Below, in pieces: positions 1,665 to 54,981 of a DNA stretch of 64,000 bases. This DNA comes from a virus, in the IMG/VR virus record IMGVR_UViG_3300012347_000211, positions 1 to 64,000 of that record. One strand, 5' to 3'. The translations under genes and the position numbers were made by a program. The notes below the pieces were generated by a model. The model made no database searches, was not told the DNA's origin, and saw only the letters and a program-made list of their open reading frames with translations. Numbering within the stretch: position 1 is the stretch's first letter; each line of letters begins with the position of its first letter.

Positions 1665-2903
1665 TTACTTCATGCCCAACGCAGCTTTACCTGCCTTCAA
1701 TGCTTCCAGTGCTGTGGGACCAGACCACCTGCGAGTACCTTCCTCGTCACAGTACGGAGCAAGCGTTCGCTCTACCGACCACGCATGCTTGATGTTTGCC
1801 TCATCAGTAAAGCATGTCTGTGGTGGATGGCGCATGATTGCCCACTCCAACGAGTCAAGTGCACGAATCACTTCAAGTGCATCAACATGATCACTGGTCA
1901 ATGGATGAGCGTACACAGGAACATACCCAGCTGGCAACAACTGCTTCGTGAGTGAGTCTTCGGTGTGCACTAGTGCGTTCTCGGCCCACACACTCATCCC
2001 GTTACAGTGGCTGAGCTCTTCCAACTCATCCACATGCACGTATGCTATAGGATCAAATCGGTTCATTCGCACTCTTCCAAGTACTTGTAGTAGTCTTCGT
2101 TCGTGTTGTATGTGTATTCAGTGCCGTCAGCGAGGATACAATGTGGCCCAGGAGACTTTCCAGGTGTAAACTCATATAAAAACCACGTGACATCCTCAGC
2201 CATATCGCCAAATAACGCATTGGTCAACAGATCATTCTGGGCGTATAGCAAGTTGACGTATGTGTTATCGAAGAATGCTGCATTGATATCTTGCGGAATC
2301 GTTGCAAAGTACTCATCTCGCTCCGCGCCCATCTCTTTCATCTTGCGGACAACTTCTATCAATTCTGGTTTCATTGCTTTGCTCCAAACTTTTGTGAGAG
2401 ACGCTCAAACTCAGCCTTCTCTGCTTCTTCACGTTTACGGATATGCTCTGCCTGCTCAAGCATACGCACCTTCAGTTCATCATCAGTCTCTTCACGCTCA
2501 ATGGACAATTCATAACGAGGTGTTGGTTCGTTATCGTAATCATAATAAAAACGAGAATTGTAATAGCAGTGAGCATCTGGCCCATGTTGCTCGATTAGGT
2601 CTTGCACGCGTTGCAGAATCAACGACAATGGGCCTTCGAATTCCCATGTAGAGATATCATCTACACGAGTTTTAATCTTTAATCGTTTCGGCGTCATGCG
2701 TCCACCTCAATATATCCACGTGGGAAGTAGATCATCTTATCGTCTTCCCAGTACTGTTCAGGATACTCAAAACAGAACTTAGGACCAAACAGCTCAAACA
2801 CACGTTCACGGTCGCCCTCGACTACAGCAACACAGTCCTTATCGAACACCTTGCCGTTGACCTCATGGAAGTGGCCATGTCCAAATGTCACATACGTTTT
2901 CAT
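1665..2903 (-). CDS. Four hypothetical proteins (1665-2066, 2063-2374, 2371-2697, 2694-2903)
   Basis: Translationally coupled ORFs. Confidence 0.75.
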
Positions 2904-3148
2904 ACATTAGCTCCGAAGTGTTGTTTGATAGTCTTGGCACAGTCTCTAGGACCACTACTAGAGTCGGGTTCATCATCCCAACGCCACGTGTCATGGCAGC
3001 TTAAACACACCACCATGCACTCCTGCACGATTAGCTTAGCGAACACGTCCTTCGCCTTTAACGCCTGTTCTACACTCAAATTGGTGTATGTTTCAGGCAC
3101 AGCAATGTCTAGAGCCTTAGCCCACAATCTTTGATACTGATCAGTCAT
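2900..3148 (-). CDS. Paralog family A member
   Basis: DVFAKLIVQEC / IKQHFGANV. Confidence 0.85.
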   Translation of the reverse strand: MTDQYQRLWAKALDIAVPETYTNLSVEQALKAKDVFAKLIVQECMVVCLSCHDTWRWDDEPDSSSGPRDCAKTIKQHFGANV

Positions 3149-3613
3149 ATTGTAGTCTCATCTTCTTCAGATCAGCAACAGACTCGATAGGGGCCTTGCC
3201 ATGGTAGAACTCGGACCTCAACTTAGCCCATTCCTCGGTCGTGGGGTGACTGATCTTCTCCCACCCACATACAACACCTACCCACTCAGCCCACAACCCA
3301 CATTCAACCTGTGGATTCTCCTGCAGATACTGCGCGTTCTGTTGCTCTTCAGTTAGTTCGTCCCACATTACATCACCTCTAATGCACGAAACACAGCAAC
3401 GTCTCTTTCTGTTGCCTGGCGGACATACACCTCGTCTATGCTTCCGTGGCGGTGATGTGGATCGTCCATCCAGACTTGCACTACGCCATTATTAGTCCTC
3501 AAGTACTCACCAGGAGCAACGAGGGAAAGCAGATATGCCTTCGTTATCCGCTTTGTTTCTTCTTCAGATATCCGAACAACCTCGGACACTGTCTTGTGTA
3601 TTGTGATATCCAT
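3141..3613 (-). CDS. Two hypothetical proteins (3141-3368, 3368-3613)
   Basis: Coupled ORFs. Confidence 0.7.
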
Positions 3614-16319: not shown

Positions 16320-17203
16320 ATCGTCCATTCTTTCCGTCAAATTCAAACATCTGTTTGTTACACATTGTACACCACACTTTGTACAATGTGTATGAATTGT
16401 CGTAGTAGTCACCAGGAACGTACTGCGTGGTGACTACCTTATCTTCGTGCGGACACATAGTTGAGAAGACAGCGGCCATTCCGTGTGCCTTCTTTCTCAT
16501 TTCGTCTGCCTCTCGCTTAGCATCAATCGCGATTTGTTTCATACGCTGCAACCCCTCTGGGTCACTCACAACGTACGGAGCAGATTCGTATTCTTCGAGG
16601 AACTCCCGTACCTCTTTAGGTAACTTAGCCATCACATGAACTGCAGAGCAATCCAACCGAAGAACAATGTGACCAACGGTGCAATCATTGCATTAGACAA
16701 AGATTCAATCACCAATTCAGCCTTGCTCTTTTGTGGGTCAGGAGTCTTGGTCTGCAAGTGTTGTGTGAACATGCCAACGATCAACGAGATGCCAATGGCA
16801 ACAGGCAGTGTGATCACAGGAGCACCAATGAACACTGGTACAATGAACCATTCCCACAGAGTAACAAGGACCCAAGCGCGAACAAGGACCGCACCAACAA
16901 TCAAACCAATCCCGCCCAATACAGCGAGCAATCCGATAGACAATTCAAACATAATCAATCCTTCTTCAATTTTGGATACTCGCCAGTGCGAGTGTTACCA
17001 TCACCACCATAAGGGATGCACTCGTCATCCCAACTCTCAGCATTTGTGCCATCATATTCGTCAATGTCAAGGTCAACATCGTGCCCTGATATATCACTCA
17101 ATGCATCGCGGACATAGTACGGTGCACGTGCATATGCGTCGCCAAGTGAATCAGCGACGATTACAAATTCATACCCGACACGTACCGCATACAGCTTACT
17201 CAT
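16312..17203 (-). CDS. Three hypothetical proteins (16312-16632 Zn-ribbon-like; 16632-16952 membrane; 16955-17203)
   Basis: ORFs in array. Confidence 0.65.
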
Positions 17204-17591
17204 TGAACAGCTCCGTAACATCATATTCAAATCGTTCCGACATCGCATCATACACATCTTGTGGAACATCGTGGATCGATCCGAATGCATTCTGACACAG
17301 AATCACTGTCGGGACAACATCAAACTTCTTTGCAAGTTCAAAGTAAGGACGCAATTCTCTGAGCGTAGTGAATGTGTTGGACACTACAGGACTGAACCCA
17401 CGCTTCAACAAACGCTCAGCCTCATCCAAGCACCACTGATGTGCTTCCTTGAGACGCTCACGCTCGAATGTGTATACGCCATCCTTCATCCAGAACTGAT
17501 CTGTTTCCAGATGCCAGTACCAGCCAATCAGATTCTTTGCAAGCGTTGATTTGCCACTACCTGGCAACCCACGGACCAATAACAATTTCAT
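17196..17591 (-). CDS. P-loop kinase (AAA_33 / polynucleotide-kinase-like)
   Basis: Walker A GLPGSGKST; AHQWC; VSNTFT; HDVP. Confidence 0.85.
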   Translation of the reverse strand: MKLLLVRGLPGSGKSTLAKNLIGWYWHLETDQFWMKDGVYTFERERLKEAHQWCLDEAERLLKRGFSPVVSNTFTTLRELRPYFELAKKFDVVPTVILCQNAFGSIHDVPQDVYDAMSERFEYDVTELFNE

Positions 17592-18047
17592 AATTCGTAA
17601 CGCCTTCCGTTATCAATTCCTTCACTATACACGAACCCCTCTACAGCGACACCCCATAACGCAAAGTCTTCCATCGTCCATTCACGGTTGAGGATGAGCA
17701 AGTACACTTGATCGTAGGTCAGCTCCAGCAGTTGATTTGTAGTCATGCTGCTTGCACTATTGGGATTGACTGTAGTCAGCGCTTCGATCTTCTTGCGAAG
17801 CAGTTCATTGATATTTGTGTTGTTCGTGTTGGCAGGCATGTACTTTTCCTCTGATTTTCTTGTCGTAAGATTGACCGTAAATTAAACGCCACCGCTCACC
17901 GATGCCGCGGTACCATATGAGGTCGTGTGCGTAACATGACTTGCAGTAGGTCGTGGAAGGCCCAGTGCGCCGACTGGGGTATTCATCAATACCATCGCCA
18001 TCCATTAGTTCCCAGATGACTTGGTCGGGCATGCTGAATAAGCTCAT
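17588..18047 (-). CDS. Two hypothetical proteins (17588-17839, 17805-18047)
   Basis: ORFs in array. Confidence 0.6.
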
Positions 18048-18424
18048 GGGTTTAAGTGTAGTCCTACATCAATGTAAAGAATCTTCAAATTGGACACACG
18101 GCCATGTTCGTCGACCTCGCCCGTTGCACGCAAGCGCAACTGCATTTCCATGTCGTCGAGAATCGTCCGCAGCGAGAACCCACGTGGTGTGTCTAAGATC
18201 CGTACATCACATAATGCAATGTTTCCGTCCATACGGAAGTTCTCACAAATGTGCGATACTTTCTCAAGGTCGATCTCAAGCGAATCGTCGCTGTCGTCTT
18301 GGATCTTACCTAAGATGGGACGATCGATGTTGAAGATTGCAAGTGCAAGCTCTGCGTATGGATAGATGCGACCCGAACCCTGATATTGTTCGGCGACCGC
18401 AAATGCCATGTTCGGAATCAACAT
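18044..18424 (-). CDS. Prohead-protease (gp21)-fold paralog, catalytic His and Ser absent
   Basis: Colinear with gp21 of this window: GRIY/GRKY, IDLEKVSH/INLDRVSH, ILDTPRG/VLDTPMG, LRATG/TRGMG, YIDV/AADIV. Confidence 0.8.
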   Translation of the reverse strand: MLIPNMAFAVAEQYQGSGRIYPYAELALAIFNIDRPILGKIQDDSDDSLEIDLEKVSHICENFRMDGNIALCDVRILDTPRGFSLRTILDDMEMQLRLRATGEVDEHGRVSNLKILYIDVGLHLNP

Positions 18425-18786
18425 CAGAATGCTACCTTGAGACCGAGGAGTGCGTTGTTGCGCACGACAAGGAACTGCACACCAACGATACCTGTCAGAT
18501 ATGCAGTACGGTACTTGTCACCTGCATAGTCTGCAATCAAGTAGTTGCCAACCATCCAGCTCGCAAAGTACATATTGACTTTACCCATAGACGGATGCTC
18601 ACCGAGAATCCGGTTGGTCTCGTGATACTTGTCGGGGTTCTTTACGATCTGGCGTGTCTGCATCCAGTCGGCGAGCAACAAGGCTTCGCTAGCTACAAAC
18701 AAACGCTTATCAGTTGTATCCCATTCATCAAACGCATGCGCTTGAAAGGAACACAACAACAGGATGGTGGCTAGGAGCTTTTTCAT
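18424..18786 (-). CDS. Exported/membrane protein
   Basis: Signal peptide MKKLLATILLLCSFQAHA; ETNRILGEHPS; C-terminal Phe. Confidence 0.7.
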   Translation of the reverse strand: MKKLLATILLLCSFQAHAFDEWDTTDKRLFVASEALLLADWMQTRQIVKNPDKYHETNRILGEHPSMGKVNMYFASWMVGNYLIADYAGDKYRTAYLTGIVGVQFLVVRNNALLGLKVAF

Positions 18787-18977
18787 AGGTAGCCGAGGAT
18801 AGCGCCGAGTGGGCCAACGAAGATACCAACAATACGCAAGATCAACATGCCTGTCAGCACATCAAAGCTCGAGTGAGCGATCGTAATGATATTCATCACC
18901 CATCCCACGATTGCAGCAACAACAATACCAACTTGTGCTACGACCAACGAGACCACAATCAAATCATCTTTTCTCAT
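18783..18977 (-). CDS. Small membrane protein
   Basis: GWVMNI..RIVGIFVGPLGAILGY. Confidence 0.75.
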   Translation of the reverse strand: MRKDDLIVVSLVVAQVGIVVAAIVGWVMNIITIAHSSFDVLTGMLILRIVGIFVGPLGAILGYL

Positions 18978-19002
18978 AATAAATTCCCTTTTCAATAAAC
19001 CA

Positions 19003-19031
19003 ATTATAAGGATGACCAACTATACGGTCAA
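19003..19031 (-). promoter_or_regulatory. Sigma70-type early promoter
   Basis: gTTGACC-17 bp-TATAAT. Confidence 0.85.
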
Positions 19032-19085: not shown

Positions 19086-19119
19086 AAGAAGAAAGACCGA
19101 CAGCGAAAGGTGTCGGTCT
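19086..19119 (-). terminator. Intrinsic terminator candidate
   Basis: 9-bp stem AGACCGACA/TGTCGGTCT followed by TTCTTCTT. Confidence 0.6.
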
Positions 19120-54318: not shown

Positions 54319-54326
54319 TATTTATA
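54319..54326 (-). promoter_or_regulatory. Late promoter for gp22
   Basis: TATAAATA. Confidence 0.9.
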
Positions 54327-54336
54327 TGACCGTGAT

Positions 54337-54981
54337 TTACAGTTGTGTTAGGAAGCGTCTAAACAACTCAGACTTAACTTCGTCGAGACGAATTGCTGGG
54401 GTTGCTTCGATGGTCTTCTTCATCTCGTCGATGTGCTGAGCCTTAATGAGACCGTTGTCCCATACCCACTCAACACCTTCCATAATTCCCTGAACGAATG
54501 CGTCAGGTGCTGATGGTTCTGCTACAATGTCTGCAGCAGTGGCGAGATAGAAGTCGTCCTGTACTTCCATGATTCCGTTTACTTCTTTCAGAGATCCCAT
54601 GCCGCGTGTAGAGACACCAAGGCAAACTCCGCTTTCAATCAACTTACGAGCAATGTTGCCCATAGGAGTATCTAGTACGAGTGCTTTGCCGTAGAAGTCG
54701 TTGCCGTTTTGCTTTAGCTCGACAATCTTGTGTGATACGCGGTCTAGGTTAATCGATGGACCATTAGGATGGCCGAGTTCGCCTAGAGCTCTGTTTTCGT
54801 TAATGTACTTCTTCGTGTAGCGGTCGATCTCGCGTTCCAGAGTTTCCACTCTGTACTTGCGGCCGTTGCCGTTTACACGTTCTGCTTGCAAGAAGATACC
54901 TTCGATGTAGAGGTTCTTCTTACCTGATTTTTCTTCGACAATAAATTTAATGTCTGAGACTTCTTCTGTGAACAGTTTCAT
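54337..54981 (-). CDS. gp21: Prohead protease
   Basis: ALGELGHP, GVSTRGMGS, AADIVAEPSAPDAFV. Confidence 0.98.
   Translation of the reverse strand: MKLFTEEVSDIKFIVEEKSGKKNLYIEGIFLQAERVNGNGRKYRVETLEREIDRYTKKYINENRALGELGHPNGPSINLDRVSHKIVELKQNGNDFYGKALVLDTPMGNIARKLIESGVCLGVSTRGMGSLKEVNGIMEVQDDFYLATAADIVAEPSAPDAFVQGIMEGVEWVWDNGLIKAQHIDEMKKTIEATPAIRLDEVKSELFRRFLTQL

Follow-up and report, generated by a model that had tools for sequence, protein, structure and literature searches.

A selected, non-catalytic relative of the prohead protease gp21 in a T4-like phage, and its family of short homologs

IMG/VR virus record IMGVR_UViG_3300012347_000211 comes from a T4-like phage and comprises 122,554 bases, with an estimated completeness of 68%. 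We analysed its first 64,000 nucleotides (64 kb; "the window"). In addition to the gene for gp21, the prohead protease, the window carries on its minus strand (18044..18424) a short second copy that encodes 126 amino acids (aa). We found that this paralog is a non-catalytic protein with the gp21 fold, reduced to the protease core, and that it is maintained by purifying selection. Rather than standing alone, it belongs to a large, uncharacterised metagenomic family. A preliminary description of the window, made from the letters alone, had called the gene a pseudo-protease; we can say with high confidence that it is a selected one. Contigs from 20 public runs of 16 studies, labelled freshwater or wastewater, carry parts of the locus; no RNA run was among those listed, which speaks neither for nor against expression.

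Results

The short gene encodes a gp21 homolog with the predicted gp21 fold

The two copies in the window are as follows.

18044..18424, minus strand: dead, core-only gp21 paralog, 126 aa; His replaced by Asp43, Ser replaced by Arg97, Asp119 kept
54337..54981, minus strand: genuine gp21 prohead protease, 214 aa; GELGHP and GVSTRG motifs, with Pfam and PHROG matches

The genuine gp21 matched Pfam Peptidase_S77 (8.5e-37) and PHROG 207, "head maturation protease" (2.7e-80). It occupies its standard place in the head module, between scaffold protein gp22 and the portal side. Its identity to proteins of cultured phages is at most ~62%, and the best matches are in Synechococcus myoviruses.

BLASTP aligned the 126-aa protein (P0001) with the gp21 of the window at 27 of 90 positions (E = 2e-6). 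The similarity is colinear, and the motif pairs given in the preliminary description are the aligned ones (paralog/gp21: LGKIQDD/LGELGHP, IDLEKVSH/INLDRVSH, ILDTPRG/VLDTPMG, QLRLRATG/GVSTRGMG, and YIDV/AADIV). The open reading frame (ORF) scored 7.3e-7 against PHROG 207. A profile built from 131 short relatives matched the gp21 of the window with 99.3% probability (E = 2.4e-20, 118 columns) and T4 gp21 with an E of 2.8e-11. The ORF by itself had no Pfam match even at E ≤ 10, PF03420 included, and a search of solved structures in the Protein Data Bank (PDB) gave no sequence match. The absence of Pfam and PDB matches to the ORF alone explains the "hypothetical" labels on such genes.

An AlphaFold2 model built with the alignment of the short family had a mean predicted local distance difference test score (pLDDT) of 94.8 and a predicted template modelling score (pTM) of 0.86. 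The best solved match of this model in Foldseek was T4 gp21 (5jbl_A; E = 1.1e-5, template modelling score [TM] 0.81). VIA-align of the model with 5jbl_A gave a Z of 14.8 and a root-mean-square deviation of 1.6 Å over 120 aligned residues; the next entries were herpesvirus proteases, with Z of 8.2 or lower. The model thus indicates that the 126-aa protein has the gp21/herpesvirus-assemblin fold. The protein is very acidic (isoelectric point [pI] 4.6, net charge -9) and lacks a signal peptide.

The paralog has lost two catalytic residues and both terminal arms

In the inactive crystallised T4 gp21 (5jbl), the motifs read GELNAP and GVASRG, vs GELNHP and GVSSRG in native T4, and Ali et al. 2017 (PMC5694885) name an H/S/D triad. 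The altered His and Ser are therefore the catalytic positions, as the preliminary description had stated. In the gp21 of the window, the triad corresponds to His71 (GELGHP), Ser124 (GVSTRG), and Asp151. Asp43 of the paralog is aligned to His71 and Arg97 to Ser124, so that the catalytic His of the GExxHP motif and the nucleophilic Ser of the GxSxRG motif are both gone. The third triad residue is kept: Asp119 is aligned to Asp151.

The N-terminal propeptide and the C-terminal tail are also absent. Residues 1-123 of the model matched T4 gp21 residues 38-172, and the alignment of the short-family profile spanned residues 27-154 of the 214 residues of the gp21 of the window. Loss of both residues and of both arms had been claimed beforehand, and all of it held.

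Eight positions are invariant in the eight closest relatives of the paralog: G39, H58, N62, L77, T79, P80, G82, and G102. None of them is a Ser, Cys, Asp, or Glu. His58 belongs to the VSH motif, which is common to active proteases, and is kept in 87% of the short family. In the genuine gp21 of a second phage genome that carries both copies (G001; L009 1447-2097), GELGHP and GVSTRG are unchanged and VCI replaces VSH, so that catalysis does not depend on the VSH histidine. On these alignments, an alternative catalytic triad in the paralog appears unlikely.

Short, dead gp21 relatives form a large family

When 1.84 billion cluster representatives were searched exhaustively with phmmer, 319 clusters were found at E ≤ 1e-3. 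Family counts were made on the query and the best 150 of these 319 matches; 131 of the proteins had at most 170 aa (median ~126) and 20 were longer. The alignment contained the 131 short proteins, 16 of the 20 long ones, and the gp21 of the window; P0054, P0139, P0107, and P0136 were dropped from the long rows as repeat or multidomain proteins. Retention of the catalytic residues was as follows.

Short proteins (≤170 aa), n = 131: His kept in 10, Ser kept in 22, both in 2, neither in 101
Long proteins (>170 aa), n = 16: His kept in 15, Ser kept in 14, both in 14, neither in 1

The catalytic His was thus present in 94% of full-length relatives vs 8% of short ones, and the catalytic Ser in 88% vs 17%. 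The former Ser position of the short proteins was most often occupied by Arg (57 of 131). The homolog survey proposed in the preliminary description therefore bears out a consistent loss of His and Ser. Other gp21 motifs are still conserved in the short family: NGRIYP (NGRxYP), G67, VSH, LDTPxG, RGxG, and ID. The only long row with neither residue, P0092, consists of a short-type domain plus an N-terminal extension.

Two of the 131 short proteins, P0011 (146 aa) and P0060 (142 aa), were the sole short members having His, Ser, and the aligned Asp. From their sequences, they are possibly active mini-proteases or intermediates toward the dead form.

PF03420 was matched at E ≤ 0.01 by 62 of the 131 short members, and PHROG 207 by 125. 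In a FastTree phylogeny of 149 rows and 128 columns, used for short/long clustering and not for rooting or order of events, the short/long label required 2 changes vs 17.2 in shuffles. The short proteins thus cluster together, and did not arise beside each phage's own protease. Several viral clusters of 114-143 aa surrounded the query in the ESM Atlas. Tandem copies of the dead gp21-like domain are present in P0139 (two; 452 aa), and N- or C-terminal extensions accompany it in P0092 (231 aa) and P0136 (302 aa); it behaves as a module.

The paralog is maintained by purifying selection

A metagenome contig carrying a 96% identical copy of the gene (L005) had 14 nucleotide differences, all of them synonymous (nonsynonymous divergence [dN] 0, synonymous divergence [dS] 0.16-0.19). 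The ortholog on a more distant contig (L006; 82% amino-acid identity) gave a dN/dS of 0.05-0.09, a value that is approximate because dS was saturated (1.3-2.3). Variants listed inside the ORF, at least 12 in number and from contigs of four runs, were synonymous in 10 of 12 cases, the others being V120A and D90N; a further 138 variants across a 1.7-kb stretch lie outside this set. The reading frame and start (MLIP...) were identical in three independent assemblies. The low dN/dS and the dN of zero do not bear out a reading of the paralog as a decaying duplicate, for which a ratio near 1 had been named as the sign. These findings demonstrate that the paralog is maintained by purifying selection.

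The protein diverges faster than its operon neighbours: in L006, its identity was 82%, vs 90-95% for the neighbours, and its dN was 0.124, vs 0.044 for the neighbouring gene. Between this phage (G000) and G001, the paralogs are 37% identical and the genuine proteases 69%.

The paralog lies in a putative early operon outside the head module

The signals and genes around the paralog, and the late motif near gp21, are as follows.

19094..19119, minus strand: terminator-like hairpin of 9 pairs with a T-rich tail, which closes the preceding unit immediately upstream of the promoter
19003..19031, minus strand: sigma-70-like promoter, TTGACC-17-TATAAT, 11/12, preceding the operon
18783..18977, minus strand: operon gene 1, a 64-aa small hydrophobic membrane protein (PHROG 6006, unknown function), whose stop overlaps the next start (ATGA)
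18424..18786, minus strand: operon gene 2, 120 aa, with a signal-peptide-like N-terminus (MKKLLATILLLCSFQAHA), whose stop overlaps the start of the paralog (TGATG)
17805..18047, minus strand: operon gene 4, an 80-aa Cys/His-rich protein, whose start overlaps the stop of the paralog (ATGA)
17196..17591, minus strand: 131-aa stand-alone P-loop, polynucleotide-kinase-like protein, further down the same gene string
54319..54326, minus strand: T4-type late promoter motif TATAAATA, just downstream of gp21 and before gp22

The paralog is the third gene behind the near-consensus promoter and lies 35.9 kb from gp21, outside the head module; both statements agree with the preliminary description. Two promoters of this quality were found in the 64 kb, vs 0.37 expected. 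Exact TATAAATA motifs occurred four times in the window (26352, plus strand; 53260, 54319, and 61121, minus strand), vs 1.18 expected. Each falls in a late region: three are among head and tail genes, and one heads a plus-strand block of large genes. The four motifs are consistent with T4-type late promoters. A scan of the whole window revealed no TATAAATA motif near the paralog. From the promoter, the terminator, and the lack of a late motif, we infer with fair confidence that the paralog is transcribed early.

Operon gene 1 was 95% identical over the part present in L006. The gene 2 product, translationally coupled to the dead protease, was 92% identical there and had no match in Pfam, PHROGs, NCBIfam, or PADLOC. 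The 131-aa P-loop protein matched AAA_33 (2.5e-12) and PHROG 2071 ("ATPase"), with weak polynucleotide-kinase matches. One contig of run X4 showed a replacement at 18761-18783, the junction of operon genes 1 and 2, where 21 bases were skipped and 146 other letters were present. Single-base deletions at 18984-18989, in the leader between the promoter and the first ATG, were present in runs X2 and X4.

The paralog is an accessory gene

A homolog of the paralog (P0008) was found in G001, a complete record of 234,864 bp with terminal repeats. The genuine S77 protease of G001 is located at 2798-3241, and the short copy ~113 kb away among small same-strand genes. G000 and G001 thus each had two matches, one full length with His and Ser and one short without them. 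The region of the short copy in G001 is loosely syntenic with the window, three neighbouring genes having homologs 49-60% identical. Fifteen related IMG/VR records (44-223 kb; gp21 57-70% identical) had the genuine protease only, and four of these were at least 90% complete. Presence in two phage records and absence from 15 relatives indicate that the gene is accessory and patchy. As single queries, P0001, P0007, P0032, and P0019 gave no loci in IMG/VR and only P0008 gave some; genomic context is accordingly drawn from two phage records and one huge-phage record.

We also searched 50,697 GenBank phage records by tblastn, using P0001, P0005, P0009, P0008, and P0017 as queries. Among the matches listed, two of which were inspected directly, no short family member was detected by sequence in a cultured phage, and P0008 had no match at all. 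The listed matches that could be judged were full-size genuine proteases, apart from unannotated records of uncultured phages (such as LR756511.1). A "hypothetical protein" of P-RSM6 turned out to be the gp21 of P-RSM6.

LR756511.1, from an uncultured 595-kb phage, contains a 297-aa ORF (L004 5851-6744) that begins with a Tat-like leader (MINRRCFI...), continues with a dead gp21-like domain (GELGMP, FRSRGLG), and ends in a ~130-aa C-terminal extension. The leader suggests that some relatives may be exported.

Discussion

Possible functions of the paralog

The reading that we prefer, with a probability of roughly one in three, is that the paralog binds competitively to cleavage sites of the gp21 type or to stray protease, and so limits cleavage outside the capsid. 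Transcription would be early, from the sigma-70 promoter. The C-terminal region was inferred in PMC5694885 to target the protease to the prohead; the paralog, which does not have it, would presumably not enter the prohead core and would remain in the cytoplasm. It would act by binding and not by cutting. The most likely targets would be Glu-containing peptides of the gp21 cleavage-site type, or the protease itself. We suppose that the retained gp21 motifs serve as a substrate groove, and, more speculatively, that the Arg at the former Ser position holds the P1 Glu. Cleavage following a glutamyl residue in phiKZ is described in a review (PMC9026906) as highly reminiscent of the T4 cleavage motif. 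Cleavage outside the prohead would be blunted, also at bait loops through which the host senses phage protease, for instance the activation loops of the CD-NTases (cGAS/DncV-like nucleotidyltransferases) of CBASS (cyclic oligonucleotide-based antiphage signalling systems). According to a preprint (10.64898/2026.03.04.709575), T4 gp21 alone is enough to switch on CBASS, through cleavage of a loop in the CD-NTase; this agrees with the statement in the preliminary description that prohead proteases trigger CBASS. The decoy or inhibitor function that was proposed there is one that we, too, purely infer.

Several observations weigh against this competitive-binding reading. The dN/dS of the adjoining gene (0.055) equals that of the paralog, so that selection does not single out the paralog. 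The immediate neighbours of the G001 homolog differ from those in the window, and hence no conserved partner gene points to a pathway. The Tat-like signal of the huge-phage relative is a poor fit to a cytoplasmic decoy throughout the family. In PADLOC, neither the paralog nor six operon neighbours matched a defence or anti-defence family; the one match, to the kinase-like protein, was a generic P-loop one. The timing of expression is deduced from promoter and motif positions. A broader version, in which short dead gp21 copies form a widespread class of phage counter-defence, early and cytoplasmic, that hold the Glu-containing bait loops of host sensors activated by prohead-protease cleavage (those of CBASS and similar systems) or mop up stray active protease, is improbable. 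In such a class, the Arg would make the active site a non-cutting clamp for the P1 glutamate, and the late burst of protease would no longer trip abortive infection.

The gp21 fold may instead have been exapted for a role unrelated to proteolysis, for example as an early adaptor in host takeover that binds a host protein, or in association with the envelope, alongside the membrane and secreted products of the operon. We regard this as doubtful, but worth keeping in view. Translational coupling links the paralog to a small membrane protein and a signal-peptide protein, a grouping that L006 conserves as well. The relative in the huge phage carries a Tat-like leader plus a C-terminal extension, and N-terminal extensions or tandem copies are seen in other relatives (P0092, P0139). 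The high acidity of the protein and the accessory, patchy status of its gene would also fit. However, P0001 itself has no signal peptide, the genes next to the G001 homolog are not the operon partners seen here, and the motifs that the family keeps are those of active proteases, which favours retention of a protease-like surface over the making of a new one. It is unlikely that the paralog regulates or poisons the gp21 oligomer, by co-assembling with gp21 and keeping it inactive or out of the prohead until its proper moment, or by spoiling the protease of a co-infecting related phage, as a functional analog of T4 Inh. The core shape of gp21 is retained almost residue for residue, and the genuine protease is present in both paralog-carrying genomes. 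As described in PMC9958956, gp21 forms a pentamer, and its active site is obstructed by the N-terminal region until the protein cleaves itself; and since T4 encodes a dedicated gp21 inhibitor, Inh, control of gp21 is a known need. On the other hand, the putative early promoter does not suit the timing of a late enzyme. All four near-complete relatives lack the paralog, which is thus not needed for head assembly, and its divergence, much faster than that of gp21, does not suggest co-evolution at a tight interface. The family shows no similarity to T4 Inh.

That the paralog is still a protease through other residues is very improbable. Asp119 is kept, His58 is invariant in the closest relatives, and two short members keep both His and Ser; but the nucleophile position is occupied by Arg, and none of the positions invariant in the closest relatives holds a Ser, Cys, Asp, or Glu. 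Active proteases conserve the VSH motif to the same degree, so that the motif provides no substitute nucleophile, and its replacement by VCI in the genuine G001 protease shows that it is not essential for catalysis. A decaying relic of duplication, or a chance ORF, is scarcely credible. Ali et al. 2017 (PMC5694885) read an analogous giant-phage gene as such a relic; here, that reading is refuted by the selection data (dN/dS 0.05-0.09, and dN 0 over 14 differences), and the frame intact in three assemblies, the family of 319 clusters, and the confident model also stand against it.

A selected family of look-alikes that are unable to cut and lack the putative capsid-loading tail is an obvious place in which to look for a phage countermeasure to protease-triggered CBASS. 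Alternatively, the dead proteases may reveal a new layer of control of head maturation.

Comparison with known systems

The paralog resembles T4 gp21 (Peptidase_S77, PF03420, 5jbl) in fold, in profile homology, in the NGRxYP, VSH, LDTPxG, RGxG, and ID motifs, and in the Asp of the triad. By its model, it is structurally within the gp21/S77 lineage. Unlike T4 gp21, it has Asp43 and Arg97 in place of His and Ser and has neither propeptide nor C-terminal tail, and its gene is 36 kb off the head module, has a sigma-70-type promoter, and is accessory, not universal. Because the catalytic, architectural, and positional features of S77 are missing, the paralog should not be filed as a protease.

Two T4 proteins associated with gp21 were considered as relatives and rejected. 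Inh, annotated in NC_000866 as "inhibitor of protease", is a phage-encoded restraint on gp21, but it showed no similarity to the short family (hhalign E = 0.28) and, unlike the paralog, is a 226-aa minor head protein made with the late genes. The prohead core protein gp68, with 141 aa, is close to the paralog in size and forms part of the core with gp21; it likewise showed no similarity (hhalign E = 0.27), and its gene, unlike that of the paralog, is in the head module directly upstream of gene 21.

The closest described precedent is SPN3US gp117, one of the "cryptic protease" paralogs of phiKZ-like giant phages, along with 201phi2-1 gp206 and PhiPA3 gp143 (PMC5694885). In the passages of that paper devoted to it, the protease paralog is termed "unprecedented" and is read as a presumably inactive, truncated relic. 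Members of the gp117 group (136-161 aa) are, like the present paralog, short, C-terminally truncated second copies of a prohead protease gene, located away from the genuine one in the same genome. The gp117 group derives from S80 proteases of phiKZ-like phages, and gp117 keeps the aligned Ser and Asp. No sequence kinship was detected between the short-family profile and the single gp117 sequence (hhalign E = 0.14), a weak test given the single-sequence target, and only one of the 131 short members touched PF20034 (Peptidase_S80; 9.7e-4). The relic reading of gp117 came without a selection analysis in the passages concerned.

In a fold search of viral models, proteins from cultured jumbo phages, all short and uncharacterised, resembled the model: those of Yersinia phage fHe-Yen9-04 (144 aa, TM 0.84), Erwinia phage RAY (148 aa), Pseudomonas phage Phabio (124 aa), and Vibrio phage River4 (122 aa). 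The presence of such short look-alikes in cultured jumbo phages indicates that the architecture recurs. Our literature search found no short dead S77 paralogs in T4-like phages and no phage protease decoy. The only published precedent that we found, in giant phages, treats such genes as relics; our selection and distribution data say that they do something. New here, in comparison with one published S80 "relic", is a family that is derived from S77, under selection, and widespread.

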